A DNA stretch of 64,000 nucleotides. Source: Patescibacteria group bacterium. GTDB taxonomy: Bacteria > Patescibacteriota > Patescibacteriia > JBAZBY01. The notes under the pieces are model-generated. The model was not told where the DNA came from, did not search any database, and saw nothing but the letters and a program-made list of their open reading frames with translations. Below, in pieces: positions 30,072 through 54,440 of the stretch; the stretch's first letter is position 1; each line of letters begins with the position of its first letter. The stretch spans positions 30,338 to 94,337 of the forward strand of contig JBAZBY010000001.1 of the NCBI GenBank assembly GCA_041671225.1, in the 5' to 3' direction. Made by a program: the position numbers and the translations under genes.

Positions 30072-31405
30072 GAAAATTTTTCTGTGAAGTAATGAATGAG
30101 ATCATCAATAGGAATGCGCTCCTGCTCCATGGTATCCCGGTCGCGCACCGTCACCTGGCTGTCCGTGAGCGTGTCAAAATCCACGGTCACGCAATAGGGC
30201 GTTCCCGCTTCATCTTGACGGCGGTACCTGCGGCCGATGGATGCCGTCTCGTCATAGCTTGTTGTCCAGTGCTTCTGTAATTTTGTTTGCAGCTCTTTTG
30301 CCGGACCTGCAAGTTCCTCTTTTTTCGAAAGTGGCAAAATCGCTATTTGGATTGGCGCAAGATGTTTGGGGAACTGCAATACCAACTCTTCATCCTTTGT
30401 TGCCTCGGTTGTTTTGGTACGGCCACCTTCGATCATGCGGTAACTCTCGAGCATCACGGCAAGAAAAAGCCGTCCAATGCCACCCGTTGGCTCAATCACA
30501 TAAGGAAGATATTCCTCATTCGTCTTTGGATCGCGATACATAAAATTTTTGCCAGAAGCTTCCATGTGCCGCTTCAAATCATAGTCGGTTCGGTTTGCGA
30601 GACCCCACAGCTCATCCCATCCCCATGGAAACTTATAATGAATATCAACCGTGCGCTTACTGTAATGCGCGAGCTCATCCTTTGGAGTCTCATAGCGCTT
30701 GAGATTTTCCTTCTTCAAACCGAAGCGTTCAATAAGCGCGTTTTCCATGAAGACCAGCCAGTCATCAAAAGCTTTTTCATCCTCACCTGGTTTCACAAAG
30801 TATTCCAACTCGGCAATATCAAACTCACGGACGCGAAAAATGAAGTTGCGATAGGTGATCTCGTTGCGAAAACTCTTTCCGATCTGCGCGATACCAAACG
30901 GCACCTTTGCGCGCATGGAATCCATCACATTCATATAATTCGTGAACATCCCCTGTGCTGTTTCCGGGCGCAGATATGCAACGTTCGCATCTTCCTCAAC
31001 GGGACCGGCAAATGTTTTGAACATTGTGTTAAACTGCTTCACTTCTGTGAAGTCCTGATGCTTGTGCTCTTTGATGTCATCTTCTTTATCTGCGCGTATA
31101 CGCTCATTGCACACTTTGCATTCCACCATCGGGTCAGTGAAATGTGCTAAGTGTCCACTCGCCGCAAAGACGGCCGGTGGCGCAATAATACTACTCTCAA
31201 TGCCATAGACATCATCACGCTCTTCAACGAATACCTTCCACCAGAGCGCTTCAAGATTCCGCTTGAGCTGCACACCCAAGGGGCCAAAATCATAAAAACC
31301 TCCAAGTCCACCATAGAGCTCAGCGGATGGGTGCACAAACCCGCGTCGCTTTGCGAGGGAGACTATCGCTTCCATTGTTTTTACGTCTGTGGCTGGCTTT
31401 GCCAT
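30068..31405 (-). CDS. glyQS: glycine--tRNA ligase (alpha2 dimeric type)
   Basis: Class II aaRS core with the N-terminal GlyRS signature GFVHPSAELYGGLGGFYDFGPLG. Confidence 0.93.
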   Translation of the reverse strand: MAKPATDVKTMEAIVSLAKRRGFVHPSAELYGGLGGFYDFGPLGVQLKRNLEALWWKVFVEERDDVYGIESSIIAPPAVFAASGHLAHFTDPMVECKVCNERIRADKEDDIKEHKHQDFTEVKQFNTMFKTFAGPVEEDANVAYLRPETAQGMFTNYMNVMDSMRAKVPFGIAQIGKSFRNEITYRNFIFRVREFDIAELEYFVKPGEDEKAFDDWLVFMENALIERFGLKKENLKRYETPKDELAHYSKRTVDIHYKFPWGWDELWGLANRTDYDLKRHMEASGKNFMYRDPKTNEEYLPYVIEPTGGIGRLFLAVMLESYRMIEGGRTKTTEATKDEELVLQFPKHLAPIQIAILPLSKKEELAGPAKELQTKLQKHWTTSYDETASIGRRYRRQDEAGTPYCVTVDFDTLTDSQVTVRDRDTMEQERIPIDDLIHYFTEKFS

Positions 31406-31452
31406 AACAAATGGAAGTATAGCGGGGAATGCTGCTTTGGCGCAAGAACTCT

Positions 31453-34125
31453 CTACAGCTCTTCCGCGTGCTTCACGCTTACCTGTCCGCCTTTTTCTAG
31501 CACCGCAATATCGCGGCGACCAAGATTCCCGGTGAGTAAAAATTTTGCAAGCGCATCATCCACCTCATCTTGAATCAAACGCCGCAACGGACGTGCTCCA
31601 AACGCAGGATCAAAACCGCGTTCAGCAAGATCGACAAGCGCTTCATCGGTCACTTCTAATGTTATTCCACGATCAGCAAGCTGAGCCTGCACCTTGCCAA
31701 TAAGCAATCGAGCAACCTGCACAATATGCTCCGGTGAAAGCGGCGTGAAAACAACGATATTATCAAAACGGTTGAGGAATTCCGGTCGGTAATACTTGCC
31801 GAGCACAACATTCATGAGCTCTTCTTTAATTGCATCAGCTCCAATACCCTCTTTTACCCGTTGCTGGATCACCGGCGTGCCGGCATTTGACGTTGCAATA
31901 ATAATCACATTGGTAAAATCCACGGTACGCCCAGTTCCGTCAGTAAGGCGACCATCATCCATCACCTGCAGGAAAAGATTCAAAATATCTGGATGTGCCT
32001 TCTCAAGTTCATCAAGCAATACGAGTGAAAATGGTTTTGCGCGCACCGCCTGTGTGAGTTGGCCTTCCCCCGCTCCGGCATACCCCGTTGGGGCACCAAG
32101 CAACCGCGCAATGCTGCTCACGTCCTGATACTCCGACATATCCAATCGCGTCATGTTTTCTTCTGAACCAAAGTACACCTCGGCGAGTGTCTTTGCGAGT
32201 TCTGTTTTCCCGACACCGGTTGGTCCAAGAAAAAGCAGGGATGCGATGGGGCGTTTTTCATCACGCAGCTCTGTGCGTGCGCGGCGGAGCGCTTTTGCAA
32301 CTGCGCTCACCGCTTCTTCCTGATTAATTAAGCGGCTGTGAATTTCATCTTCTAAATGCAGCAGCTTCTCGCGCTCATCCTTCGTCACCTCGGCAACCTG
32401 TACCTTTGTCTTTTTTGAAATAACCTTTGCGACGTCCTCGCCAGAAACGATCATATCCTGACCACGCTCACGGCGAACGAATTGCGCAACATCCTCCGTG
32501 AGACGGATGGCCTTTTCCGGCATAAGATGATCATGAATGTAACGAATAGAGAGTTCAACGATTTTTTCAACGGCGTCATAGGAAAAGAACACCCGATACT
32601 TCGCTTCGATGGGAAGAGTGCGCGCCTGCACGATACGAATAGCAAGGTCAGTATCCGGCTCACCGACAAGAATCCGCTCAAAGACGCCTTCGAGCGCGTG
32701 GCCTTCGATCACGCGACGGTAATCTGTTGGCGTTGTCGTTCCAATAACAATCTGCCCATACCGCTGCACATGATTAGAAAGCAGTTCAGCCACATCCAAA
32801 CTTGAGCCGCCCGCAGAAGAAAGCCCGACGATATTCTGCATGTTCTCAATGATCAGTATGATGTTCCCTGAGCGCGTTGCTTCAAAAAGAATGGACTCCA
32901 TGCGTTGTTCAAGTTCACCCATGGCGGCAGCGCCTGAAACAAGTTTTGCAACCGAAAGTGAAATAAGCCGCATGTCCCGCAAAAACTCCGGAACTTCCTC
33001 CGCGGCCATGCGCTGCGCAAGTCCTTCAAGAATCGCCTGTTTGCCCACGCCAGGGTCGCCAACAAGCAGTGGCATGGCTTGTCTCTGCGAAAGAACTTCG
33101 AAGATATGCTGAAATTCATCATCGCGACCAACCATGGCACTCAGCATGCCGCGACGCGCGAGGTCGGTCATGTCATTGCCAAAGCGGTCAAGAAGCGGCG
33201 TGGCGATTGCGGTCATCGCTTTGTTCATGCCGCTTTTGGAGCGATGAGATGCCTTAAGTCGTGAAGAACTCAAATGACTTGTATGCCTATGCGCAAGATA
33301 CATCCATTCAATGACATTATGCAGCTTACGCGTATCAACGCTCAGATCAAAGAGTACTTCACTCGCAATGGATTCTGTTTCTGATATGGCGAGGATGATT
33401 TCTTCGGTCTGCACGTGATCCTGACGGAACATCAGCGTTTCCAAAAAGGAGTGCACCAACAAACGCTGCGTAATCACGCTCAACACAGGCCGATGCTCTC
33501 CACGTGGAAACTTCTCAAGTTGGCGACCAATCTTTTCAACAAGTTGTTGCTGGGAGATGCCAAGTCGGGTCATGACAAAACTGCCATTCTTTGTTTGCAA
33601 TGATGCCGCAAGAAGATGTAATGGCATGACCTCCACATGATGAAAACGCTTTGCCAAAAGCCATGCCTCCTCCACCATATCATGAGCGGGCTGTGAGAAA
33701 TACTGTTCAATATGAATCAAATTCTTATCTTTTGCGATCTCCTCACGCGTCAGCGGTTCGCCAACCGTAAACTGCGCGTATGAAAAGGCATCAAGCCGTT
33801 TGATGCGATGCATCTCTCTATCAAAGCGGTAGATCAAATAGAGATCGGTAAAAAGTGAAAGCCAGAACACGCTCATCGGTCCATTCTTAAGGTCAAACCA
33901 CTCTTGAAGCGTGCCGCCTATATTGACGCTCTCATAGAACTGCCAAAACCCTAAACCAAGTCCCACAATACCAAAAGCGAGCAATGTACCGTTCACGACG
34001 GTCAGTACCATGCGTTCTAACTTTGCCTCGTGACGAGAGCGGTCACTGGGAACACGGCCCCAGAGCAAACCATTGCCGTGTTTACCAACAACAACTGTTA
34101 TGCCATGAGCGTCTTTTCGCTCCAT
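31453..34125 (-). CDS. membrane-anchored ClpC/ClpB-like AAA+ ATPase with catalytically degenerate D1 module
   Basis: Two AAA+ modules. D2 is intact (GPTGVGKTE, LLDELEKAHPD). D1 has GDPGVGKQA (Thr replaced by Gln) and IIENMQ in place of IDELH. Clp_N domain present, preceded by two TM helices. The ORF track starts at 34203, overlapping the upstream gene; an internal ATG at 34125 is proposed. Confidence 0.85.
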   Translation of the reverse strand: MERKDAHGITVVVGKHGNGLLWGRVPSDRSRHEAKLERMVLTVVNGTLLAFGIVGLGLGFWQFYESVNIGGTLQEWFDLKNGPMSVFWLSLFTDLYLIYRFDREMHRIKRLDAFSYAQFTVGEPLTREEIAKDKNLIHIEQYFSQPAHDMVEEAWLLAKRFHHVEVMPLHLLAASLQTKNGSFVMTRLGISQQQLVEKIGRQLEKFPRGEHRPVLSVITQRLLVHSFLETLMFRQDHVQTEEIILAISETESIASEVLFDLSVDTRKLHNVIEWMYLAHRHTSHLSSSRLKASHRSKSGMNKAMTAIATPLLDRFGNDMTDLARRGMLSAMVGRDDEFQHIFEVLSQRQAMPLLVGDPGVGKQAILEGLAQRMAAEEVPEFLRDMRLISLSVAKLVSGAAAMGELEQRMESILFEATRSGNIILIIENMQNIVGLSSAGGSSLDVAELLSNHVQRYGQIVIGTTTPTDYRRVIEGHALEGVFERILVGEPDTDLAIRIVQARTLPIEAKYRVFFSYDAVEKIVELSIRYIHDHLMPEKAIRLTEDVAQFVRRERGQDMIVSGEDVAKVISKKTKVQVAEVTKDEREKLLHLEDEIHSRLINQEEAVSAVAKALRRARTELRDEKRPIASLLFLGPTGVGKTELAKTLAEVYFGSEENMTRLDMSEYQDVSSIARLLGAPTGYAGAGEGQLTQAVRAKPFSLVLLDELEKAHPDILNLFLQVMDDGRLTDGTGRTVDFTNVIIIATSNAGTPVIQQRVKEGIGADAIKEELMNVVLGKYYRPEFLNRFDNIVVFTPLSPEHIVQVARLLIGKVQAQLADRGITLEVTDEALVDLAERGFDPAFGARPLRRLIQDEVDDALAKFLLTGNLGRRDIAVLEKGGQVSVKHAEEL

Positions 34126-34156
34126 GACAGAAGGATGGGCAAGATGTTTTTCAAAA

Positions 34157-34531
34157 TTAGCCAACGTGAAATACTGAACGAATAAAAAGATACGCAGTGC
34201 CAATAGGCAACGCGAGCCACAGAAGAACGAAAAGTACTAAAATCAGAAGCCACAACACATACATCACAATACGAACGCCAAACAATATCAAACGCAGCAC
34301 CAGGGAAATGGCACGGCCAGATTTTGTATAATCGCCGTACATCGGCTTCAAGAGATTCTTGAAAAGTACGACAATGGAAAGATTCCGAATCCCCTGCAAT
34401 GCTTCTTGCCCAAAAAACTGCAAGGCACGCCATGTACCAGTGGTATACCACCAGACAGGAAAACGTAATACATCAAAGAGCAGTGTCGTCAGCAGAAAAA
34501 TAATTGCCCGTTTAGTAACAGATGTTGCCAT
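34157..34531 (-). CDS. hypothetical membrane protein
   Basis: Hydrophobic ORF. The ORF-track start (34603) is Cys/Phe-rich junk; the ATG at 34531 (MATSVTKRAIIFLL) is the likelier start. Confidence 0.5.
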   Translation of the reverse strand: MATSVTKRAIIFLLTTLLFDVLRFPVWWYTTGTWRALQFFGQEALQGIRNLSIVVLFKNLLKPMYGDYTKSGRAISLVLRLILFGVRIVMYVLWLLILVLFVLLWLALPIGTAYLFIRSVFHVG

Positions 34532-34626
34532 AAAGGTATTACAACAGAAAAATGCTTTTGCAGCAACGTAAAAGCACCTCCAGCATACCGAGGAACCGCG
34601 CAAATAACGTATTCGAGATTATTCCC

Positions 34627-36504
34627 TTATTCTTCAAGAATCACAATGCCCTGGCCTGCTGCGCGTGTATCATGCAACAAATCTGTGGTCATTGTCGCGA
34701 TAGATGATGAAAGTGCTTCACCCGTATGCACGTCAGTTGCGGTAACAGTGGCGGCATCGACCAACACTGGTGTACTACCAATCTGATTTGTGGTTGGGGT
34801 AATACGCACGGTAAACTGGGCTGAAAGGATTGCCGAAAGCGTCCCAGTGCCTGCGGGGATGGTATTCACCTCCCAGCGCACCTCGCGGGTTACAGAATCA
34901 AAAGCAATCGTACCGGCGGTTGCGTTAAAATCCATTCCAGGCCAAAAAACATCTCGCGGTATGGTCGCAACAACAGAAAACGTGTCTGCATTGTTCGTGG
35001 TATTTGATGCAAACCATTGAATGACATACGTTGTTGATTGCCCTGCTTCTGGCGGAATAGGACCATCACCGATCGGGATCCCCTCTTCATCGTAGTACCG
35101 CGCTTCTCCGGTAACATTCAAAGTAGTGGCGACAGGAAGCACCAATGTGCGTTCTGTTCCTGCGAGTGTGGGATCATCCAGACCACTGATACTACCAACA
35201 TTCGAACGCGCAGTAAGAGAAACATTCTGCAAAAAATCATCTTCGCTTGCCGGCGTAAGTGGCTGCTGCACGGTCAATGAAAGCGTCACATCTCCCTTTG
35301 CTCCAGGTTTCAATTGTTCGAGACTCGAAATTTCATCCTTCGTCCATATAAACGTCAAGCCATCAACGCGTGCCTCAGGAATCGTTGAAAGATTCGATGC
35401 CACAAGCGGACTCTTGTCATCCACGACCATCGTGAGCGTCACATCAGTGAGTGCAAGTTCAGAGGTATTCTCATACGAGAGCTTCACGGGAATGCGATCC
35501 CCTGGTTTGATGGGAATCGTTGTGTCTTCATCCGCGCGTTCAAGCGTAAGAAAAAGTTCAGGCTTCACAAGTAAGATAAGCACGCTTGCCCTTCCTTGCG
35601 TGTCCTCAATGCCGTTGCGATTCAACGAAGAGACAATGCTCAATTCAACGAACTCCTGCTCACTTGCCGCAAACACTCCAGAAAACGTCAACTCCTTTTC
35701 TTCATCGGGTGCGATAGAATCAATGCTCCACCGTTGTCCATCTGAAATTTCTGGGGTACTGCTTGTAAGCGTAAAGTCCTCTGGTGTGCCTATGGTCAGG
35801 CGCAAGGCAGAAAGCGCATCGCTACTCGTATTCGTTACCACAACCTTCCAGGTTCCCTCGCTCCCCGGTGCGATCTCCTGCGGACCCTCGATATCCATCA
35901 TAAGCGCCGAGGCCCCAATACGAACATTGACGCGATCCGTTTCATGAAACTGATAATTAAAATTCTCTGGTTGAAAGGTAAAGGTAAAGCCAAATTCCTT
36001 TTCCTCACCCACGGCACCAATGAGATTACCAGTCAACGTTAGACTATTTTCTTCACCCGGAGAAAGCGTGCCGAGGGTATATGCGTTCTTTGCTTCATTA
36101 TCCGCAGAACGGCTTGCGTTCTTTACGGTATACCCCGAAGGAAATTGAATGGTCATCACAAAATCCTTCAACGCGACATCCTCCACATTCGTCATTGTCA
36201 ACGTAATGGAAAAATCCTCACCAGCAGCAACGCGTTCTGGTATCTGGGCCTCTACACGTACGCTCTTGCCGCTATATTCCGCATCCTGCGCAATAAAAAG
36301 GAAAAAACCTGCTGTTGCGGCACCAAGAAGAACGACCGTAACAATGAGAACGATGTAAAATATCTTCCGAGGATTCCGCTTCTTGCGCTCAAAACGCGTC
36401 ATGTCCACACGCCGTCCCTCTTCTTTGAATATTTCAGAAAGCTGCGACTTCGGTTTGCGAATGCCAGAGGTTCTACGGATGCTTTCTGTTGTTCTATTTT
36501 CCAT
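34627..36504 (-). CDS. large membrane-anchored surface protein with repeated beta-sandwich (DUF11/CARDB-like) domains
   Basis: 625 aa with an N-terminal basic segment plus TM anchor, then Thr/Ser/Val-rich repeated modules with recurring G-x-x-L-T-x-T and TxTN motifs. Confidence 0.6.
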   Translation of the reverse strand: MENRTTESIRRTSGIRKPKSQLSEIFKEEGRRVDMTRFERKKRNPRKIFYIVLIVTVVLLGAATAGFFLFIAQDAEYSGKSVRVEAQIPERVAAGEDFSITLTMTNVEDVALKDFVMTIQFPSGYTVKNASRSADNEAKNAYTLGTLSPGEENSLTLTGNLIGAVGEEKEFGFTFTFQPENFNYQFHETDRVNVRIGASALMMDIEGPQEIAPGSEGTWKVVVTNTSSDALSALRLTIGTPEDFTLTSSTPEISDGQRWSIDSIAPDEEKELTFSGVFAASEQEFVELSIVSSLNRNGIEDTQGRASVLILLVKPELFLTLERADEDTTIPIKPGDRIPVKLSYENTSELALTDVTLTMVVDDKSPLVASNLSTIPEARVDGLTFIWTKDEISSLEQLKPGAKGDVTLSLTVQQPLTPASEDDFLQNVSLTARSNVGSISGLDDPTLAGTERTLVLPVATTLNVTGEARYYDEEGIPIGDGPIPPEAGQSTTYVIQWFASNTTNNADTFSVVATIPRDVFWPGMDFNATAGTIAFDSVTREVRWEVNTIPAGTGTLSAILSAQFTVRITPTTNQIGSTPVLVDAATVTATDVHTGEALSSSIATMTTDLLHDTRAAGQGIVILEE

Positions 36505-46825: not shown

Positions 46826-46859
46826 AAAAGGAACCGCCCTCGGGTTCCTTTTCGCTTTT
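46826..46859. terminator. bidirectional intrinsic terminator
   Basis: AAAA, then GGAACCGCCC-tc-GGGTTCC, then TTTTCGCTTTT. Ends the plus-strand small ORF and the minus-strand 1110-aa gene. Confidence 0.65.
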
Positions 46860-49800
46860 ACTGTATCACAATCCCGCTCGCAGAGAATGGAATGACATTT
46901 GCAATGCCAGAGAGCGGGCCGGTGACGATGTCATCCACGCCATCACCATTCACATCACCAGAAGCCACGCTTGTGCCATACCGCGTGGTTTTGCCGTAGG
47001 CAAAGAACTGCGCGTCAACATTCCCAAATGCATCAAGTGAGCGTACATGCGGACCGCCAACCGCCGCCGGTACGACAATAATCTCATCAAAACCGTCCGC
47101 ATCCACGTCCCCTGCTGCCACAGAGAGCCCAATGCGGAACTCCTTGGGGTAAGCGAAGAACTGGCCTTCCAAGGTGCCACGCCCGTCAAAAATGCGTACA
47201 TGCGGACCGCCAACATTCAAGGGAACAATGATGATCTTATCCCGATTCGTGTCATCAATATGCCCCACCGCAACAGAAAGCCCGAGCCGATACCAAGCGG
47301 GATATGCAAAGAATTGCCCGAGTACATTCCCATTGCCGTCGAAGACGCGCACTTGCGGACCTCCGCGCTCACGGGGCGTCACGACAATCTCGTCTTTGCC
47401 ATCGCCATCCACATCGCCGGCGGCAACCGACGCCCCAACGCGAATATTTGATGCGAACGCGTAGAATTCACGCTGAAGATTTCCGCGAGAATCAAAGATA
47501 CGAATAAGCGGATAGTTCCCCACTTCCGTTCCGGTGATGATTTCAGCAATACCATCACCATCAATATCGCCAGCCGCGATGGTTGTTCCACCCCGGTACG
47601 TTGAATCATATGCAAAAAATTGACCCTTCACGCTTCCCTCTTTTGAAAACACGCGAACCTGCGGGCCACCAGAACCTTTTGGCACAGTAATAAGATCATC
47701 AATGCCATCGCCGTCGACATCACCAACGGCAACATTCACACCACCCTGAAAAAAAGTGGGGTACGAAAGAAAACCATCGACCACATCAAGGGTAAAGGTT
47801 CGTGTTGGTATGCTTCCGTCTGCCTCCTGCAGCGTAAACGAAACAGGAAAGATATCTGTCTGCCCGTCCACATTTGTTACCTTCACGTCATACCACCCTG
47901 TTGGCATCTGCGCGATAGGGATCACAATCGTCGCACTGGTATCGCTCTTGATATACACCGTTGCCGGGTACGGGCCGAACTGGGCCTGCATCCCATGACG
48001 AAAGCCAGTGCCACTCATATCCAAATAGGCCTCCGAAGCGGTATGACTTGCCTTCTTGATAGTATTTGGCCCAATGCCGCTCACTTCTGGTGCGTCTTCT
48101 GCAAACGGTGCAGGACCAGTGATATCCACGCGACGAATAAGATCGCTCCATTGATCTGCAACATAAAGCGTGCGGCCAGTGTGGTCTACTGCCAGTCCAG
48201 AAAGATTATTGAACTCCGCCGTACTCGGGGCGCCGTTCTCAAAACCACGCACACCCTCACCGCTGATCAGCTTAGAAACATTTGCCGTCAAATCATACAG
48301 CCGGATACGATGCGAACCATTGTCAGTGATATAAAGGATATTGTCATCAAACTCCACATAGAGTGGAAAGGAAAAAACGGCATTGTCGCGTACGCCCTCT
48401 AAATAACCTGCACTACCACGGCCTGCAATGGTGACAACGTCCTGCGTGGCGATCTCAATACGACGAATGGTGTGATTATTGCGATCAGCAACGTAGAGAT
48501 AGTTCCCGTTACGGTCGATGGTGATGCCCCACGGCGCATTAAACTTTGCATTGCTGCCCGTGGCATCCGCATTCCCCTTGCTTCCGCCTGCAACAAGTGT
48601 CGTTACGCCGGTGGAGATGCGAATCTTACGAATGCGATTGTTTGACGTGTCCGTAATATACAACCACGCATCATCTGGGCTAATGGCGATATCCGTAGGA
48701 TTATCAAAACGCGCCGCTGAACCCGTACCCTCTGCATACCCATTCCCCGGACCACCGGTGTTGAAATCCCCACCTCCTGCCACAAGCGAGGTCATCTTAC
48801 TCGCAATGTTTACCTTACGGATGCGATTATTCCAATGGTCAACCACATAAAGATTCTCCCCCGCTGAATCAATCGTGATACCGGATATATTTGAAAAACG
48901 GGCATCCTCGCCAGAGAATCCCTCGCCAATATAATCATCAATACTGCTGCCAACAATCCAGCTCCCATCAACGCTTCCTGTTGCGCGCGTCATCCGACGA
49001 ATTTTATTATTTTCAGCAAGATAGATATACGTCCGATCCGGGCTTATCACCATATCATGTGGCCGACCAAGAAGCGCACCGGTTCCTGTGCCGCTCGTAA
49101 ATCCAAAACGATCGTTGCCGGCAAAACGAACATCATCACCATCTGACGTTGCAAACTGCACAACCGTTGAGAGCCCTGCCATGGCAACGTAAAGCTTATT
49201 ATTATATGCAGCAATGCCTGCAGGATAATTCACAACCCTCATTCTTGCATCACTCACAAAAAGCTCCGTTGCACCGGTGCTTGTATTCACTTTACGGATA
49301 TAATCCGTGAGTCCATTACCATCACTCACATAAAGCGTACTCCCAACCTTCGCAATACCCCAGAGATTTTGAAACCGTGCCGTGCTCGCAGCGCCTTCTT
49401 TGTATCCCTTCGTGCCAGAACCAGAAAGCGTGCTCTTGATACCGCTCCGACGATCAACCTTCATGACCTTGTAGAGTCCTGCATCCGCAACATAAATAGT
49501 CACGTCAGTCACAACGAGCTTCTTTGGTTCACTAAGCCCTGTTGTGAGCGTTGTGACGGAACCACCATTCGTGCTGACGAAAAGTATCTTCCCGCTGCCG
49601 GTCTCCGCGATATACAGCGTCGTGTTGTAGACAGCAAGCCCCTCCGGCCCAGAAAGATTTGAAAGGAGCGTTGAAACAGAACCGCTTGGCGTGATCTTCC
49701 GGATGGCATTGTTGCCGGTATCCGCAACATAGATGTTGCCGGAGCTATCGCGGGCGATGCCGCGTGGCAAACCAAACTCCGCGCTGTCTGCCGCGCCGTT

Positions 49801-50190
49801 GCGCTCACCAAACGCGCCCGTGCCGGCATACGTGGAAATCTTTCCATTTGTCCCAACTTTACGAATAACATTATTGTAGGTATCTGCGATGTAAAAATTG
49901 CCACTGCCGTCAGAAAGCACGTCCTCAGAAAAATCCAAAAGCGCAGACGTTGCCGCCTGCCCGTCGCCGCTATATATTTTTCCAACATAGGTCTCAGCTT
50001 CACCATATGCATGCGCTGTTCCCCCAAAAACAAAAAATGCCATGAAAGTGATGGCTATGATAGGAATGATGCGCTGCGATTGAGTGAAATACACCCCCAT
50101 TGCCATTACACTATAGCGCATTCTGAGACATTTTTCAAGCAAAAAAAATCGGGAGGACATTCGCTTAGCAGCGAAGCCTCCCGAGTTCAA
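46858..50190 (-). CDS. giant secreted/surface protein with NHL repeats and C-terminal FG-GAP/VCBS repeats
   Basis: At least 8 NHL-type repeats (GNFYIADTYNNVIRKV, GNIYVADTGNNAIRKI, LYVADRNNHTIRRI and others) and 6 FG-GAP-like Ca-binding repeats (VGDVDGDGIDDLI, AAGDIDGDGIAEII, AAGDVDADGFDEII and others). Signal-peptide-like segment MAMGVYFTQSQRIIPIIAITFMAFFVFGGTAHA; the true start is probably internal to the ORF-track start. Confidence 0.8.
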   Translation of the reverse strand: MNSGGFAAKRMSSRFFLLEKCLRMRYSVMAMGVYFTQSQRIIPIIAITFMAFFVFGGTAHAYGEAETYVGKIYSGDGQAATSALLDFSEDVLSDGSGNFYIADTYNNVIRKVGTNGKISTYAGTGAFGERNGAADSAEFGLPRGIARDSSGNIYVADTGNNAIRKITPSGSVSTLLSNLSGPEGLAVYNTTLYIAETGSGKILFVSTNGGSVTTLTTGLSEPKKLVVTDVTIYVADAGLYKVMKVDRRSGIKSTLSGSGTKGYKEGAASTARFQNLWGIAKVGSTLYVSDGNGLTDYIRKVNTSTGATELFVSDARMRVVNYPAGIAAYNNKLYVAMAGLSTVVQFATSDGDDVRFAGNDRFGFTSGTGTGALLGRPHDMVISPDRTYIYLAENNKIRRMTRATGSVDGSWIVGSSIDDYIGEGFSGEDARFSNISGITIDSAGENLYVVDHWNNRIRKVNIASKMTSLVAGGGDFNTGGPGNGYAEGTGSAARFDNPTDIAISPDDAWLYITDTSNNRIRKIRISTGVTTLVAGGSKGNADATGSNAKFNAPWGITIDRNGNYLYVADRNNHTIRRIEIATQDVVTIAGRGSAGYLEGVRDNAVFSFPLYVEFDDNILYITDNGSHRIRLYDLTANVSKLISGEGVRGFENGAPSTAEFNNLSGLAVDHTGRTLYVADQWSDLIRRVDITGPAPFAEDAPEVSGIGPNTIKKASHTASEAYLDMSGTGFRHGMQAQFGPYPATVYIKSDTSATIVIPIAQMPTGWYDVKVTNVDGQTDIFPVSFTLQEADGSIPTRTFTLDVVDGFLSYPTFFQGGVNVAVGDVDGDGIDDLITVPKGSGGPQVRVFSKEGSVKGQFFAYDSTYRGGTTIAAGDIDGDGIAEIITGTEVGNYPLIRIFDSRGNLQREFYAFASNIRVGASVAAGDVDGDGKDEIVVTPRERGGPQVRVFDGNGNVLGQFFAYPAWYRLGLSVAVGHIDDTNRDKIIIVPLNVGGPHVRIFDGRGTLEGQFFAYPKEFRIGLSVAAGDVDADGFDEIIVVPAAVGGPHVRSLDAFGNVDAQFFAYGKTTRYGTSVASGDVNGDGVDDIVTGPLSGIANVIPFSASGIVIQ

Positions 50191-50211
50191 GAATGATCTT
50201 ACGGAACCTCC

Positions 50212-50922
50212 TCATGACGTTCGCCGTGCGTAGATGCGCAACGTCCCTTTATGCCCCCCTTGGTTCGAGATCGTCCGGCCATTGAAGATGCGGCCGGCGG
50301 ACCAGTCTATCTTCATATCCTGGTCGTAGTTGGGTCCCATCATGACAGGACCCGACGCGGTTGCGATGCACCTCCCTTTTTCCCCTCTCACAGGAGAGGC
50401 GGTTTTGTTCCAGGGCTTCCCCGGTTGCTTGATGCTGAGCATCAAGAAACCGCGAGCCTCGCCTGGGTCAGGGTACCACTCGTTGCGGTACGACCCCTCC
50501 GAGTTGGGCATGAACGCCCGCGGGTCACTGGGATCGGTGGTCGGCGTGGTAGGCCAGAACATCCACCCGGCGTATCCGGGCTTTTTGAGCTGCCAGCTCT
50601 TTGCGACCTGGTGAGCCTCCCAGGGCAAGCAGAAGCCCCTATTGCCCACCCACTCGGCGACCCATCCTATCTCGATGTGTGGATACGACTGCACCCACGG
50701 TAGATCCCCGTAGTAGACCACGGGGACATCGTACTCAACCTCATCGAAGAGCACGAAGTTCGCTGCGAACAGTGAATCTGATCCCTCGAAGGACACAAAC
50801 CCGGGTTCAGTGATCTCGGCCGTTCCCCTTGCGAAGAACAAGATGGCCAAGACCGTGAGCGTGATCACCCCAAAGGCGGCTGCCTTTGGGTATCTGACGA
50901 AGAGGCGCTCTCCTTTCTTCAT
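50212..50922 (-). CDS. hypothetical membrane-anchored Trp/Tyr-rich extracytoplasmic protein (GC-rich island gene D)
   Basis: Start set at the internal ATG (MKKGERLFVRYPKAAAFGVITLTVLAILFF), which is preceded by GGAAGGGG. The ORF-track N-terminus overlaps gene C. No known domain. Confidence 0.55.
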   Translation of the reverse strand: MKKGERLFVRYPKAAAFGVITLTVLAILFFARGTAEITEPGFVSFEGSDSLFAANFVLFDEVEYDVPVVYYGDLPWVQSYPHIEIGWVAEWVGNRGFCLPWEAHQVAKSWQLKKPGYAGWMFWPTTPTTDPSDPRAFMPNSEGSYRNEWYPDPGEARGFLMLSIKQPGKPWNKTASPVRGEKGRCIATASGPVMMGPNYDQDMKIDWSAGRIFNGRTISNQGGHKGTLRIYARRTS

Positions 50923-50935
50923 TTTGCGCCCCTTC

Positions 50936-52036
50936 CTATGCTGCATGCTGCAGGACAAAGTGCCAGAGGCCGCTGCCCAACACGACCACCACGACCACCG
51001 CAGCGAGAAGCCGCAGTGGGTCCTTTGGGTTCTTCTGCGCGATGGCAATGCCTATCGCCAGAATGCCAACCGAGGCCGCCCCCACAAACGCGTTGAAGGG
51101 ATTGGCCGGGTTGGGGGCTGTGGGTGCAGTGATGGTAGTACCGGTATGAAGCGCTGCATCCGTACCAGACGCAACCACTCCAGACGCGATGAGAAAAAGC
51201 AGGACGATGATCGCCGTGCAGATTCCCAGGCTGATGAGTGCAGCCCGGCGCGCGAACTGAAGGGTAAGTGCCCCCATCTTCTTGAAGGAGAGTGCTCCCG
51301 CAATGAATGAGACCCACCAAACGGTTCGCACGATCAGGTAGATCAATCCGAGGCCTGGCATCTTGAGCAGGGCGTTGTTCAACACCCAGAATTGCCCAGA
51401 TGCTTCCGCGCTTGCCCGGAGGTCTTCAGACGCACCCATCGCCCCTACCTCATGCATGTAGGGATTGACGAGTTTGATCGTGAAGACGATCCCAGCAACT
51501 ATCATGAGCCAGGCCATGATCTTGTACGGAACCTCGCTCGTCCAGCCTCGCAAGTAGCCGATGCCAAAACCTCCGCAGAAAGCGAGGATCGCGAACCAGA
51601 AGGCCACAGAGTTGTTCTCCGCGTTGAACAGATGGCTGATCACGTGAAAGAACAACATACCCGTCACGAACGCGACGACCAGCCGGATCACCTTATCTGC
51701 CACGTTCCTGGCATCTTCCGGAACCTTGTCCCGTAGGATGCCGTTCGCGAAATCCATGCCCTTGGCAAAGGGGATGCAGATCGCCAAAGCCAGAATGGCC
51801 AAGACAAAATGCACGCCCACGAGGCCGAGGGAGAGATTCTGCAGGCCATGGTTCACCGTGTAGAGGTTCACCATGGCGTCGATCATGAGAAGCGCGAACA
51901 CGACGAAGAGCAGCCTGCCGCTCATCACCGTTCGGACGCCGTCGTAGAGCCACATAAACATGGCCTCTACGGCATCCCAGAGAATTTTCGTTACCGTAGC
52001 GCGGTCTTCGGTAACCGCAGCGTTCTCTTCTGTCAT
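50936..52036 (-). CDS. hypothetical polytopic membrane protein, about 9 TM (GC-rich island gene C)
   Basis: 366 aa with strongly hydrophobic segments throughout and no recognisable motif. Confidence 0.6.
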   Translation of the reverse strand: MTEENAAVTEDRATVTKILWDAVEAMFMWLYDGVRTVMSGRLLFVVFALLMIDAMVNLYTVNHGLQNLSLGLVGVHFVLAILALAICIPFAKGMDFANGILRDKVPEDARNVADKVIRLVVAFVTGMLFFHVISHLFNAENNSVAFWFAILAFCGGFGIGYLRGWTSEVPYKIMAWLMIVAGIVFTIKLVNPYMHEVGAMGASEDLRASAEASGQFWVLNNALLKMPGLGLIYLIVRTVWWVSFIAGALSFKKMGALTLQFARRAALISLGICTAIIVLLFLIASGVVASGTDAALHTGTTITAPTAPNPANPFNAFVGAASVGILAIGIAIAQKNPKDPLRLLAAVVVVVVLGSGLWHFVLQHAA

Positions 52037-52071
52037 TGGACGTTCCTTTCTTGCCCACCAACGGTGGGACG

Positions 52072-52674
52072 CTAGCGAACCGGTGCCCGACGACGCTTTG
52101 CCGCCAGGATCCGCTGGTGGAAGGTTTCCCTTCCGCGCGTGTGACGCTCGTGGAATACCACAAGACGCTCACGGCGAACCGGAGGAGCGGAAAAGAATGA
52201 GCGAGCGGATCGAATGATTTTCATCTTGATCGAGAAGGGCACGTTCTTGCCGTGCTCCTTTGCGACCAAAACAAATTTCTCTCTTGCCGCCTTCATCTCT
52301 TCCTTGCTAATGGTGCGACCGAGTTCAGCCTCGGGAATCTCCTCGCGAACGAGGATTTCCGCCATCTTCTCGGGCATGCGGCCTATTGTCTGTTCGAGGA
52401 GGAGCTCGAGTGTTTTGCCCTCAGAAAAGAATCTACTGGACTTGACCAGTACGAAATGGAGAATGTTCTCCAATCCAACTCCTCCGAGGAGCATTTCCGT
52501 CTCAAACTCTCGTCTATCCTGGTTGGCCCTGATGGCCAGCGTGCGATACGCACCAGGCGCAAAGCCCCGGAGGAGCCCCAACAGGAACTCACTCACGGGC
52601 CTCGCAATCATTCCTGCGACCGCAGGAATACCGGCATCGAAACGCCGGAGAAACTGCGATGAAGACAACGGCAT
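52072..52674 (-). CDS. hypothetical soluble protein (GC-rich island gene B)
   Basis: 200 aa, charged, Arg-rich C-terminus, no recognisable motif. First gene after the candidate promoter. Confidence 0.5.
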   Translation of the reverse strand: MPLSSSQFLRRFDAGIPAVAGMIARPVSEFLLGLLRGFAPGAYRTLAIRANQDRREFETEMLLGGVGLENILHFVLVKSSRFFSEGKTLELLLEQTIGRMPEKMAEILVREEIPEAELGRTISKEEMKAAREKFVLVAKEHGKNVPFSIKMKIIRSARSFFSAPPVRRERLVVFHERHTRGRETFHQRILAAKRRRAPVR

Positions 52675-52793
52675 GGCCGTTTCCTTTCTCTGTGCGGTGC
52701 ACAGGTTTGAGGTGTAGATAGGTAGAACGAGAACGCGTATGATCCGATTTCAATTGCTTAAGTTGTCAAACAGCGAGCAAAAACCGGACACCG

Positions 52794-52822
52794 GAACATA
52801 CCAAAGAAATACATTTTTGTCA
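52794..52822 (-). promoter_or_regulatory. candidate sigma70-like promoter for genes B-C-D (and possibly the NHL gene)
   Basis: Minus-strand TTGACA (reverse complement of 52817-52822), 17-nt spacer, TATGTT (reverse complement of 52794-52799). Confidence 0.4.
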
Positions 52823-52831
52823 AGTATTGAA

Positions 52832-52869
52832 AGAAAAAAAGAAGAGGGGTTCGCGCGAGCCAAACCCCT
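52832..52869 (-). terminator. intrinsic terminator after gene A
   Basis: Stem GAGGGGTT (52843-52850) / AACCCCTC (52862-52869) with a 10-nt loop, followed on the minus strand by UUCUUUUUUUCUUUC. Confidence 0.7.
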
Positions 52870-52919
52870 CTTGCCGCATGCTGAGTACAGCAGCGGGAAT
52901 GAGATGTGCAATCCCTCCC

Positions 52920-54395
52920 TCAACGGGAGCGGGTGGAAGAAGAGTCCTCCTGTGCGTGAAGCCAGCCCTCCTGCTGACCCAGCTTCTCCCACGCCTTCCG
53001 AAGGTCGGATGGCGCGGAATCCGCCGAAACTGCCTGGCCTCTGCCAGCCTCCATGTCCATCCGGGCAGTGCCGGGTCCGCGCTGCACGCGGAGCGTGACA
53101 TGATGTCCAGTGGACTTCATGAAACCCTCACGGCGCCCGAGCTCCTCCCAGGCCTTCCGGAGATCCGTGGTCATCCCCCCCTTGCGGAAGGGATTCTCGG
53201 TTTCCTCACGTTCCCTCGTAAGACGCGCGATGTCTTCAGCGGGATCATAAGCCCCGCCGCCGACCACGCGCGCCGCGATCCATACCGATTCATCGTGGAT
53301 CGCATCCTGCTTTTCCTGCGGCATCTCCGAATGGAAAACGCCGAGCAGGTGGTTCACCGGATGCGCGAGCAGAACTGCGAGCAGAGCGCACGCAGTGGCG
53401 ACGGTTGACCAGCGCACGTAGCGCCGGCGCCAGAACGTGCTGGCCAGCCAGTACGTGAGGCCCACGACGACAGAACGCCAGAACGAACGCGGCAGGGGTG
53501 GATCCTCGCCTTCAGGGAGCGGACGCTCTACGGGTTCGCCGGAACCGGCGAGCCACGCGGCGCGTACGTCACCCCAAAAGGACTCCACCGGACGCGGCAT
53601 GGGCTGCGGATCGAGGTCACCGAGTCCGCCAGCCAACCACTCGCGGTGGATGTGTCCGGGATAGCCCTTGAGAGAAATGATGATGTCACGTTCCCTCTCG
53701 GTCTTCGCCAGCCGGATGGTTTGGAACGGCGGTTCGCCAAAGCGATCTGTCGTTCCTTCGTGGCGATCCTCCGTCTCCGCGTTCGCGTCGACGATCTCCA
53801 CCACGATCCCCTCGAGCGGCTCATTGGTCTCACTGTTGGAGACCTGAATGATCGGGACAAACCTGCGCTGTCCCTGCTCAAAGGACACCCAGAGCTTAGG
53901 GATGATGGCCTGGCGAGGCCCGATCACTCCCTTGATGTTAAGGTCCGGATCGCTCTCCAGGCTGATCATCACGGGGATGTTCATGGCCTCGGAGACCGGA
54001 ACGCTCACCGAGAACATCGCCTTTCCTTCGACATCAAGGACGCTCGTGTTCCCGTACGGGAACGTCACGCCCGGATCGCGAAGGTCCATCTGCGCCGTAC
54101 CACGCATAGGCTCGTCGCCCAGCATGAACGTGGCGCAGATGTCGACGAGAACCACGCCGGGGCGGTTCTCGCTTTCCGTCCTCCGCAGCACCTCAAAGTG
54201 GATGCTGGGACGGCTGGTGCGGGGGGGTGCGGGTTGGGGAGCGCGCGGAGGCGGGGTATCGCGACGATCGTCGCGAGGCTCCGCTCTCCTCGGTTGGTCG
54301 CGGCGCGGGCCACGACCTCCTCTGCGTCCTCCCTCACGGGCGGGCGCTTCTCCTCCTGCTGCGCCGGGCGTACCGGCGGGGCTGTCTTCGGGCAT
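52920..54395 (-). CDS. hypothetical protein with Arg/Pro-rich disordered N-terminus, two TM helices and C-terminal tandem DLRKAWE(E/K)LG repeats (GC-rich island gene A)
   Basis: 491 aa; AAAGGAG Shine-Dalgarno upstream; about 70% GC; long antisense ORFs 53646..54542 and 53848..54711 are artefacts of the high GC content. Confidence 0.6.
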   Translation of the reverse strand: MPEDSPAGTPGAAGGEAPAREGGRRGGRGPRRDQPRRAEPRDDRRDTPPPRAPQPAPPRTSRPSIHFEVLRRTESENRPGVVLVDICATFMLGDEPMRGTAQMDLRDPGVTFPYGNTSVLDVEGKAMFSVSVPVSEAMNIPVMISLESDPDLNIKGVIGPRQAIIPKLWVSFEQGQRRFVPIIQVSNSETNEPLEGIVVEIVDANAETEDRHEGTTDRFGEPPFQTIRLAKTERERDIIISLKGYPGHIHREWLAGGLGDLDPQPMPRPVESFWGDVRAAWLAGSGEPVERPLPEGEDPPLPRSFWRSVVVGLTYWLASTFWRRRYVRWSTVATACALLAVLLAHPVNHLLGVFHSEMPQEKQDAIHDESVWIAARVVGGGAYDPAEDIARLTREREETENPFRKGGMTTDLRKAWEELGRREGFMKSTGHHVTLRVQRGPGTARMDMEAGRGQAVSADSAPSDLRKAWEKLGQQEGWLHAQEDSSSTRSR

Positions 54396-54440
54396 GCCGA
54401 ACTCCTTTCGCCGGAACTCCGGCTGGGTTGGAGAGTGCGC

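Follow-up and report, generated by a model that had tools for sequence, protein, structure and literature searches.

A predicted membrane-anchored Clp/Hsp100 ATPase with a degenerate first ATPase module belongs to an unnamed family found across Patescibacteria

A 64,000-nucleotide stretch of a contig from a Patescibacteria group bacterium (JBAZBY010000001.1, positions 30,338 to 94,337; referred to here as the window) carries a gene for a Clp/Hsp100-like ATPase that is predicted to be anchored in the membrane (31453..34125 in window coordinates, on the minus strand, as are all features of this gene and of its partner described below). Comparisons of sequences and modelled structures assign the protein to an unnamed, Patescibacteria-wide subfamily of the class-I Clp/Hsp100 AAA+ proteins. 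The order of its domains, from the N-terminus, is a zinc ribbon (lost in the clade of the window protein), a two-helix hairpin, a linker, a Clp_N domain, a pseudo-ATPase D1 module and a canonical D2 module. To our knowledge, the Hsp100/Clp proteins described so far are soluble machines with two rings, which either deliver substrates to ClpP or cooperate with Hsp70. The family departs from these rules: its members appear to be integral membrane proteins with one dead ring, and have neither the domain that couples to Hsp70 nor the element that couples to ClpP. Further, most of them lack the pore-loop tyrosines, and a small membrane protein is nearly always encoded alongside. This description of structure and family (domain order, dead D1 and live D2, lack of an M-domain and of a ClpP loop, hairpin and partner gene) can be given with high confidence.

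Assignment to the Clp/Hsp100 proteins

Two tandem Hsp100 AAA+ modules, the feature that places a protein in class I of the Clp/Hsp100 proteins, were recognized by Pfam, by phmmer searches of PDB sequences and by Foldseek. Pfam analysis of the open reading frame (ORF) returned Clp_N, AAA_lid_9, AAA_2 and ClpB_D2-small; the Clp_N match was weak (21.8 bits against a cut-off of 20.7), and this region also aligned to the N-domains of ClpC and ClpA. The HMMER comparison with PDB sequences gave an E value of 2e-146 to Bacillus subtilis ClpC and Thermus thermophilus ClpB, and an AlphaFold2 model scored 0.84 in Foldseek (TM-score normalized to the target) against the protomers of both ClpC and ClpB. 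In a BLASTP comparison with Escherichia coli ClpA, residues 186-910 of the query aligned to residues 18-733 in one segment, with 55 gap columns out of 748.

The protein nevertheless missed every NCBIfam equivalog cut-off: 620 against 1232 for ClpB (TIGR03346), 555 against 993 for ClpA (TIGR02639), 490 against 885 for ClpV, 524 against 1900 for ClpK and 495 against 1900 for ClpG. When tested for an M-domain, it proved ∼57 residues short of ClpC, as seen from overlapping HMMER domains, and showed no insertion relative to ClpA; the other members of the family are likewise colinear with ClpA and lack an M-domain. An initial annotation, made from the letters of the window and its ORFs, had described the protein as ClpC-like. 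That label was not upheld, given the missing M-domain, the missing VGF/IGF loop, the NCBIfam Clp cut-offs not reached and the colinearity with ClpA.

The D1 module

The D1 module, composed of a large domain and AAA_lid_9 with no M-domain insertion, was placed at 32365..33192 by Pfam, alignments and Foldseek. Its motifs were located by alignment to B. subtilis ClpC and T. thermophilus ClpB (both from the PDB), E. coli ClpA and E. coli ClpB. The Walker A motif reads GDPGVGKQA (33034..33060) where the canonical sequence is GEPGVGKTA, the Lys being kept and the Thr replaced by Gln. The Walker B motif reads IILIIENMQ (32836..32862) instead of ILFIDELH, with Glu in place of Asp and Asn in place of the catalytic Glu. 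At the pore-loop position, GAAAMGE (32914..32934), the canonical KYRG is lost and AAMG is found, and at the arginine-finger position, ALEGVFE (32677..32697), the RR pair of canonical ALERRFQ has become GV. The initial annotation had reported the loss of the Walker A Thr and of the Walker B Asp-Glu, and these motifs align as it had placed them; a shifted D1 motif assignment was ruled out by the four independent alignments. It had also described the sensor-2 Arg as replaced. The substitution is real but the label was wrong, the arginines of ALERRFQ being what we take, in the ClpB/ClpA nomenclature of Hsp100 proteins, to be the D1 arginine fingers. The loss of the KYRG pore loop adds to the defects that had been listed.

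The conservation of these changes was examined in two sets of proteins: the 120 best homologues (38-83% identical, mostly 860-945 residues long, a few of them truncated), and a second sample of 64 full-length proteins from GTDB species representatives, reached through the partner gene described below. The D1 catalytic Glu was present in two of the 120 homologues, the RR pair in three, and an aromatic residue at the aligned position of the pore-loop Tyr in none. The Walker A Lys was retained in 109/120, while the residue following it was highly variable, with Thr or Ser in 39/120. The second sample gave a similar picture, with a D1 ‘DE’ in 2/64 proteins and the RR pair in 7/64. Since the degenerate motifs are common to close and distant relatives, they reflect neither sequencing errors nor chance. 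Among 93 distant members, identity to the window protein was 42% in D1, compared with 67% in the D2 large domain; D1 is thus retained as a domain. This identity, together with a high-confidence AlphaFold2 model, also ruled out a pseudogene or a decaying D1. As judged from its motifs, D1 is catalytically dead; whether it binds nucleotide is itself uncertain, since the Walker A Lys is lost in ∼10% of the members.

The D2 module

The D2 module (AAA_2 plus ClpB_D2-small, 31519..32253) has the features of an active ATPase, as indicated by Pfam, alignments and motif counts. Alignment placed Walker A at 32200..32226 (GPTGVGKTE), the pore loop at 32074..32085 (GYAG), Walker B at 31996..32025 (LVLLDELEKA), the arginine finger at 31759..31779 (FLNRFDN) and sensor-2 at 31579..31599 (GARPLRR). 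The sensor-1 Asn is also present, so that the motif set is fully canonical, in agreement with the initial claim of an intact D2. Walker A, Walker B, sensor-1, arginine finger and sensor-2 were all present in 120/120 homologues, and the D2 ‘DE’ was found in 63 of the 64 proteins of the second sample. The other proposal of the initial annotation, that only one ring is active, is borne out by the motif alignments, which show a dead D1 beside an intact D2. The pore loop follows a different pattern. Its Tyr, kept in the window protein, is missing in ∼80% of the family: a D2 pore-loop aromatic was found in only 21/120 homologues and in 14/64 proteins of the second sample. The window protein and its nearest relatives, which carry GY[AS]G, belong to the minority that retains it.

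A check of D2 for the IGF/ClpP-binding loop, suggested in the initial annotation, revealed no docking tripeptide in either the alignments or the AlphaFold2 model. The region equivalent to that containing KSIGLIHQ in ClpA and YVGF in ClpC (31819..31866) reads QQRVKEGIGADAIKEE; it has the length found in ClpB, and the BLASTP alignment with E. coli ClpA opened a four-residue gap opposite KSIGLIHQ. AlphaFold2 modelled the region as a tight turn, and its sequence was unconserved over the 120 homologues. A stretch of ClpB length that is not conserved argues that the protein has no ClpP-docking loop.

Start codon and N-terminal region

The maximal ORF (31453..34203) comprises 916 codons counted from its first in-frame TTG (34203). 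The real start is most likely not this TTG but the ATG at 34125, which would give an 890-residue protein (plus the stop codon) beginning MERKDAHG. The gene was taken as 31453..34125 because this ATG matches the N-termini of the deposited protein P0001 and of the relatives P0002-P0004, and because the stop codon of the upstream gene lies 31 nt away. P0001, encoded on a 1.03-Mb contig, is 100% identical over 890 residues and also begins at ATG 34125; its database name is ‘MAG: ATP-dependent Clp protease ATP-binding subunit [Patescibacteria group bacterium]’ (MAG, metagenome-assembled genome). P0002-P0004 are 72-83% identical and start at the same Met. All motif coordinates given here were confirmed by translation. 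A scan of the region 31200-34800 for promoters and terminators found no sites above the level of shuffled sequence.

Two transmembrane helices are predicted ahead of the Clp_N domain, as had been proposed initially, and both lie inside the ATPase ORF. Helix 1, MVLTVVNGTLLAFGIVGLGLGFWQFY, covers 33934..34011 and has a Kyte-Doolittle peak of 1.8-2.0; helix 2, PMSVFWLSLFTDLYLIYRF, covers 33823..33879, has a value of 0.99 and contains the family motif fWlsl..D.yL.YR. The placement of both is further supported by AlphaFold2 and by the charge pattern. The AlphaFold2 model, built on a 97-sequence alignment, had a mean predicted local distance difference test score (pLDDT) of 88.2; residues 28-68 and 82-105 formed long helices connected by a short loop, the pLDDT of the helices being ∼90 or higher. 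In the homologues, helix 2 is often strongly hydrophobic (Kyte-Doolittle >2.0). At least one hydrophobic segment was detected by hydropathy analysis in 116/121 sequences; in the five exceptions the N-terminal region was truncated or missing from the alignment. Across the family, Lys plus Arg residues numbered 3.7 per 20 residues before helix 1, 1.5 per 19 in the loop and 4.0 per 18 after helix 2. This distribution fits the positive-inside rule, suggesting a hairpin with both ends inside and a cytoplasmic ATPase. The possibility that the helices come from the upstream gene, or from a frameshift fusion with it, was rejected: that gene uses a different reading frame and terminates at 34157, P0002-P0004 share the initiator Met, and the hairpin recurs in 116/121 sequences. 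The hairpin is followed by a Clp_N-type N-domain (33247..33693), recognized from the weak Pfam match and from alignments, and modelled by AlphaFold2 as eight helices.

Most family members open with a zinc ribbon ahead of the hairpin. Two CxxC motifs were present in 79/120 homologues and in 55/64 proteins of the second sample, making the ribbon a common but not universal feature of the family. In most members a conserved LYW strand lies between it and helix 1, and one member gave a weak Pfam match to Anti-TRAP, which has a DnaJ-like zinc motif. The window protein and P0002-P0004 lack the ribbon cysteines, and AlphaFold2 still gives three β-strands there. The segment 34063..34122, with strands at residues 2-21 of the model, aligns as a β-strand remnant of the family's CxxCxG...CxxCxG ribbon with its cysteines lost. 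No Cys-rich reading was found in an alternative frame or in the upstream ORF that might conceal a ribbon. Taken together, the alignments indicate that the zinc ribbon is ancestral and was lost in the clade of the window protein.

The upstream partner gene

The gene immediately upstream (34157..34531) is predicted to code for a multi-pass membrane protein of 124 residues that belongs to no Pfam family; its TAA stop codon (34157-34159) lies 31 nt before ATG 34125. The protein has a hydrophobic N-terminal helix, the motifs FPVWWYT.G and KNLxKPMYG.Y..GR.IS, and a 45-residue hydrophobic C-terminal stretch; AlphaFold2 modelled it as two long helices (pLDDT 89.5). Its family has at least 1358 members, typically of ∼125 residues and all annotated as ‘hypothetical’. 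A profile search found the partner adjoining the Clp-like gene in 8/8 metagenomic loci, i.e. that of the window and seven others. In these seven, whose Clp-like proteins are 41-48% identical, it abuts or overlaps the Clp-like start (profile E values 1e-29 to 1e-59).

A reverse search starting from the partner, with one genome per species, yielded 261 relatives; the 80 best loci were retained for analysis. A Clp-like ORF lay directly downstream of the partner in 72 of these, and within 650 nt in three more; three loci ran off the contig, and two contained no Clp-like ORF. The pairing was therefore seen in 75 of the 77 species-representative loci with enough sequence to judge. Other genes recurred near the pair less regularly: DUF11 in 30 of the 80 loci, glycyl-tRNA synthetase (GlyRS) in 25, RecO in 25, TGT in 24, a WecA-like glycosyltransferase in 22, MraZ/RsmH in nine and YidC in three. 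A conserved third partner was sought among the WecA-like, GlyRS-M16-AI-2E, DUF11, RecO, TGT, MraZ/RsmH and YidC-RnpA neighbourhoods and rejected, each occurring in 3-30 of the 80 loci and none being universal. Since the other neighbours vary while the pair is constant, the two genes form the unit.

Distribution of the family

The initial annotation regarded the architecture as unusual and suggested checking its distribution among related genomes. The degenerate D1 and the hairpin were found to recur both in the 120 homologues and in the 64-protein sample; the ∼180 relatives examined also share the lack of an M-domain and of a ClpP-docking IGF/VGF loop. The architecture, far from being peculiar to one gene, is the rule for hundreds of patescibacterial proteins. 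All homologues among the 120 with a named source were from Patescibacteria (Uhr-, Kerfeld-, Buchanan-, Nomura- and Parcubacteria). They share the motif KPK.xMNRAMTA.ATP.LD.F..DLT just before D1, which reads HRSKSGMNKAMTAIATPLLDRFGNDMT in the window protein. A profile of the N-terminal module retrieved 410 clusters at 50% identity, 240 of them with E ≤1e-10, and in the best 150 of the 410 the match lay at the protein N-terminus. Many GTDB representative records containing the gene pair (L010, L011, L019, L022, L061 and others) bear the title ‘uncultured Gammaproteobacteria bacterium’, ‘Acutalibacteraceae’ or ‘Kapaibacterium’, which probably reflects a default or erroneous MAG label or the mis-binning of contigs.

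Seven proteins (P0262, P0283, P0285, P0290, P0293, P0295 and P0302) formed a class of ∼600-631 residues with a zinc ribbon, the transmembrane hairpin, a Clp_N-like region and a degenerate D1 with its lid, but without D2; all end in the C-terminus ...VPYTKILK. From its sequence, this class looks like a D2-less, wholly pseudo-ATPase, membrane-anchored paralogue.

No description of a membrane-anchored Clp/Hsp100 protein, or of this family, was found in the full-text literature searched, the coverage of which was incomplete. In databases its members appear as ‘ClpC’ or ‘AAA family ATPase’, labels that probably mis-state their function.

Comparison with known systems

By sequence and fold, the closest known proteins are ClpC and ClpB; by domain order, ClpA; and by logic, FtsH/Msp1 on the one hand and Pex1/6 and NSF on the other. 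With ClpC, the best overall PDB match (492 bits; TM-score 0.84), the protein shares Clp_N, D1 and D2, as well as a TP.LD...DLT motif where D1 begins. Unlike ClpC, it has no VGF loop and no M-domain; the M-domain of ClpC, a short coiled coil, lies in the small domain of D1 and serves control by MecA/McsB. Further, D1 is competent in ClpC, whereas that of the window protein lacks the Thr, the catalytic Glu, the arginine fingers and the pore loop. The N-terminal transmembrane hairpin (with, in most relatives, the zinc ribbon) and the small membrane partner gene are additions with respect to ClpC.

The D2 module is most similar to that of ClpB (354 bits to T. thermophilus ClpB D2), and, as in ClpB/Hsp104, there is no ClpP loop and the corresponding region is of equal length. 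In contrast to ClpB/Hsp104, D1 is predicted to be inactive, the protein appears to be membrane-anchored, and the coiled-coil M-domain of ∼120 residues, which ClpB needs for coupling to DnaK, is missing. ClpA has the same domain order, also lacks an M-domain and aligns in BLASTP as an end-to-end segment, but both of its rings are active, it has an IGL loop that the window protein lacks, and no clpS lies adjacent to the Clp-like gene in the window. The two CxxCxG motifs with which most family members open recall the zinc-binding N-termini of ClpE and ClpX and the CxxCxGxG finger of DnaJ; however, the ribbon of the family precedes a transmembrane hairpin and a Clp_N domain, both lacking in ClpE and ClpX, and the clade of the window protein has no such cysteines.

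Other AAA+ proteins offer likenesses of working. FtsH, Msp1/ATAD1 and archaeal LonB use N-terminal transmembrane helices to keep an AAA+ ring at the cytoplasmic membrane face, and the logic shared with them is likely to be the pulling of clients out of the membrane. These proteins belong to other AAA+ clades and have a single ring, and their anchor is not homologous to that of the family. FtsH and LonB have a protease domain of their own, whereas Pfam detected neither an FtsH-type M41 metalloprotease nor any other peptidase domain in the window protein, which ends with ClpB_D2-small. In Pex1/Pex6 D1, NSF D2 and p97 D1, one ring keeps the fold and, mostly, the glycine-rich P-loop while losing catalytic residues, as D1 appears to have done here; such a ring serves for assembly or regulation, and the work is done by the other. 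These are unrelated subfamilies, and in the present family ∼10% of the members lack the Walker A Lys as well. Since the protein fails the tested defining features of ClpC, ClpB, ClpA and FtsH, it was filed under none of them.

Possible mode of action

The reading we favour, though tentatively, is that of a ClpP-independent, membrane-facing remodeller or extractor driven by D2 and working with the small membrane partner. The protein would form a hexamer in which twelve transmembrane helices keep the N-domain/D1 face against the membrane, on its cytoplasmic side. A hexamer is likely because D2 keeps its inter-subunit and catalytic residues and because the model superposes on the protomers of the ClpC and ClpB hexamers (0.84). 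Solved structures of Hsp100 hexamers have their N-domains on the entry side, at D1; with the tether also N-terminal, the entry face should therefore lie at the membrane. D1 would no longer hydrolyse ATP and, like D1 of Pex1/Pex6 or D2 of NSF, would have a structural or regulatory part, leaving D2 as the sole motor. The small membrane protein may be a stoichiometric intramembrane partner, acting as a co-anchor, an adaptor or a client gate. In the clade of the window protein, where GYAG is kept, D2 might draw polypeptides that are embedded in the membrane or associated with it into the cytoplasm, starting from the membrane-proximal face. These polypeptides would be released without being fed to ClpP, so that the protein would resemble a ClpB-like or Msp1-like extractor/unfoldase for envelope proteins and not a ClpC protease subunit. 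For this clade, we infer that a ClpP-independent, D2-driven extractor/unfoldase is the most economical model.

Several observations weigh against this model. Helix 2 of the window protein is only moderately hydrophobic (Kyte-Doolittle 0.99), and it is gene adjacency only that would place the hairpin and the partner in one complex. ClpP is common in related lineages of Patescibacteria, and three loci (L066, L068 and L092) have a ClpP gene on the same strand as the pair, ∼4 kb upstream. Of the members, ∼80% have no D2 pore-loop aromatic and essentially all lack one in D1, so canonical hand-over-hand threading cannot be the conserved mechanism of the family, and the GYAG of the window protein may be an ancestral relic. 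For the family, the missing D2 Tyr also weakens the generic label ‘unfoldase/disaggregase’ used initially, even though the window protein itself keeps GYAG. The initial suggestion of an envelope-associated disaggregase or adaptor is a plausible one.

The lack of aromatic pore loops in most members (D2, 21/120 and 14/64; D1, ∼0) makes a non-threading, ATP-driven switch or scaffold a serious rival, albeit one with a distinctly smaller chance of being right. Here, hydrolysis by D2 would move the assembly formed by the hairpin and the partner, with no translocation of a polypeptide, and would thereby regulate or assemble an envelope-biogenesis complex, e.g. a polyprenyl-phosphate sugar transferase or the division machinery. 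Such a role would suit the Glycos_transf_4 gene that 22/80 loci carry no more than 6 kb from the pair (the next downstream gene in L003 and L007), the P0280 fusion of Clp-like and Glycos_transf_4 sequences, and the MraZ-RsmH or FtsA-FtsZ genes close by in some loci, yet none of the neighbourhoods with a glycosyltransferase, division genes or YidC occurs in more than a minority of the loci, all are absent from the window, and the lone fusion could be a gene-calling artefact. The D1-only, D2-less membrane-anchored class suggests that the N-terminal module plus pseudo-D1 has a function of its own; the window protein and its nearest relatives, however, keep GY[AS]G in D2. Extended to the whole family, the proposal would be that the ATPase and its small partner constitute a membrane-embedded AAA+ machine specific to Patescibacteria whose conserved mechanism is not pore-loop threading, the one ATPase ring acting through the pseudo-ATPase ring and a collar of transmembrane helices on membrane or envelope components. 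This proposal is possible but rather unlikely. If true, it would add a new functional class to the Hsp100 proteins, perhaps one linked to biogenesis of the cell envelope or to the episymbiotic surface of these bacteria.

It is improbable that the protein is instead an ATPase subunit of ClpP that docks in a non-canonical way, forming a membrane-bound ClpP protease analogous to FtsH. The names given in the source records (‘ATP-dependent Clp protease ATP-binding subunit (ClpC)’) would fit such a role, as would the frequency of ClpP in the same lineages, its position in the three loci mentioned above, and the lack of an adjacent clpX in the ClpP loci inspected. All ClpP partners known to us, however, use a helix-loop-helix with an IGF/IGL/VGF tripeptide, and here this element is missing, its place being taken by an unconserved tight turn of ClpB length. 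Moreover, RNase Y, RnpA and YidC lie between ClpP and the pair in those loci, and ClpP is absent from 77/80 loci and from the window. Least probable of all is a general cytosolic disaggregase of the ClpB type, fitted with a tether and with a D1 degenerated by genome-reduction drift: ClpB is the best NCBIfam match and the best match of D2 (354 bits), the ClpP loop is lacking as in ClpB, and Patescibacteria have reduced genomes, but the M-domain that couples ClpB to DnaK is missing, the score of 620 bits falls far below the cut-off of 1232, and the conservation of D1, hairpin and partner over hundreds of species, despite the loss of D1 ATPase activity and pore loop, indicates selection, not drift.

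The family is conserved over a large part of the Patescibacteria, in whose tiny genomes the genes retained tend to be important. Its characterization could show how these bacteria handle membrane-protein quality control or envelope assembly, could offer a natural single-motor Hsp100 for mechanistic study, and could provide a function for more than 1300 small membrane proteins now listed as ‘hypothetical’.

Genomic neighbourhood and other observations

In the window, the Clp-like gene is surrounded by ordinary housekeeping DNA, with genes for glycyl-tRNA synthetase, an M16 peptidase, an AI-2E transporter, methionyl-tRNA synthetase, RecO and isoleucyl-tRNA synthetase, and further ones for F-type ATPase subunits, HtrA, ComEC and a DUF11 surface protein. 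No ClpP, ClpX, Lon, FtsH or ClpS was detected by tblastn in the 64-kb window, and a search with a patescibacterial ClpP gave no cluster from the 1.03-Mb contig among the 120 clusters listed. Among the 80 species-representative loci scanned, ClpP was missing from 77; in the other three (L066:1737-5684, L068:1853-5669 and L092:5001-8797) the order was ClpP, RNase Y, (L34), RnpA, (YidD), YidC, a short ORF, the partner and the Clp-like gene. No clpX was found beside ClpP in the ClpP loci inspected.

The WecA/MraY-type Glycos_transf_4 gene, present within 6 kb of the pair in 22/80 loci, directly follows the Clp-like gene in two (L003:10775-11818 and L007:8739-9800) and is separated from it by one gene in a third (L005:11523-12608). 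P0280, of 1231 residues, joins Clp-like and Glycos_transf_4 sequences, which may point to a link with envelope synthesis or to a gene-calling artefact. Locus L005 also contains, divergent from the pair and beside it (6433-7431, minus strand), a gene for a 332-residue protein with one N-terminal transmembrane helix and a canonical Hsp100 D1 (GEPGVGKTA, RYRG, FIDELH, DRRFQ; 336 bits to ClpB D1). This stand-alone D1 protein was considered as a general neighbour of the pair and rejected, as it was seen at this single locus only.

Upstream of the partner in the window (34627-36504, minus strand) lies a gene for a 625-residue DUF11/CLIPPER-repeat protein with an N-terminal transmembrane segment. A homologue was found within 6 kb of the pair in 30/80 loci, and similar proteins of ∼620-640 residues are encoded upstream of the pair in L003, L004 and L009, in conserved synteny. 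Elsewhere in the window, a 1110-residue NHL/FG-GAP repeat protein, probably a large surface protein, is encoded at 46858-50190 on the minus strand. The adjoining segment (50200-54400) has a G+C content of 0.57-0.59, compared with ∼0.50 elsewhere, and contains four minus-strand ORFs (278, 366, 200 and 491 residues) with no Pfam match. Finally, near the ClpP locus in L092, a reverse transcriptase gene (RVT_1; 914-2269) lies beside a bAvd accessory gene, an arrangement that looks like a diversity-generating retroelement.

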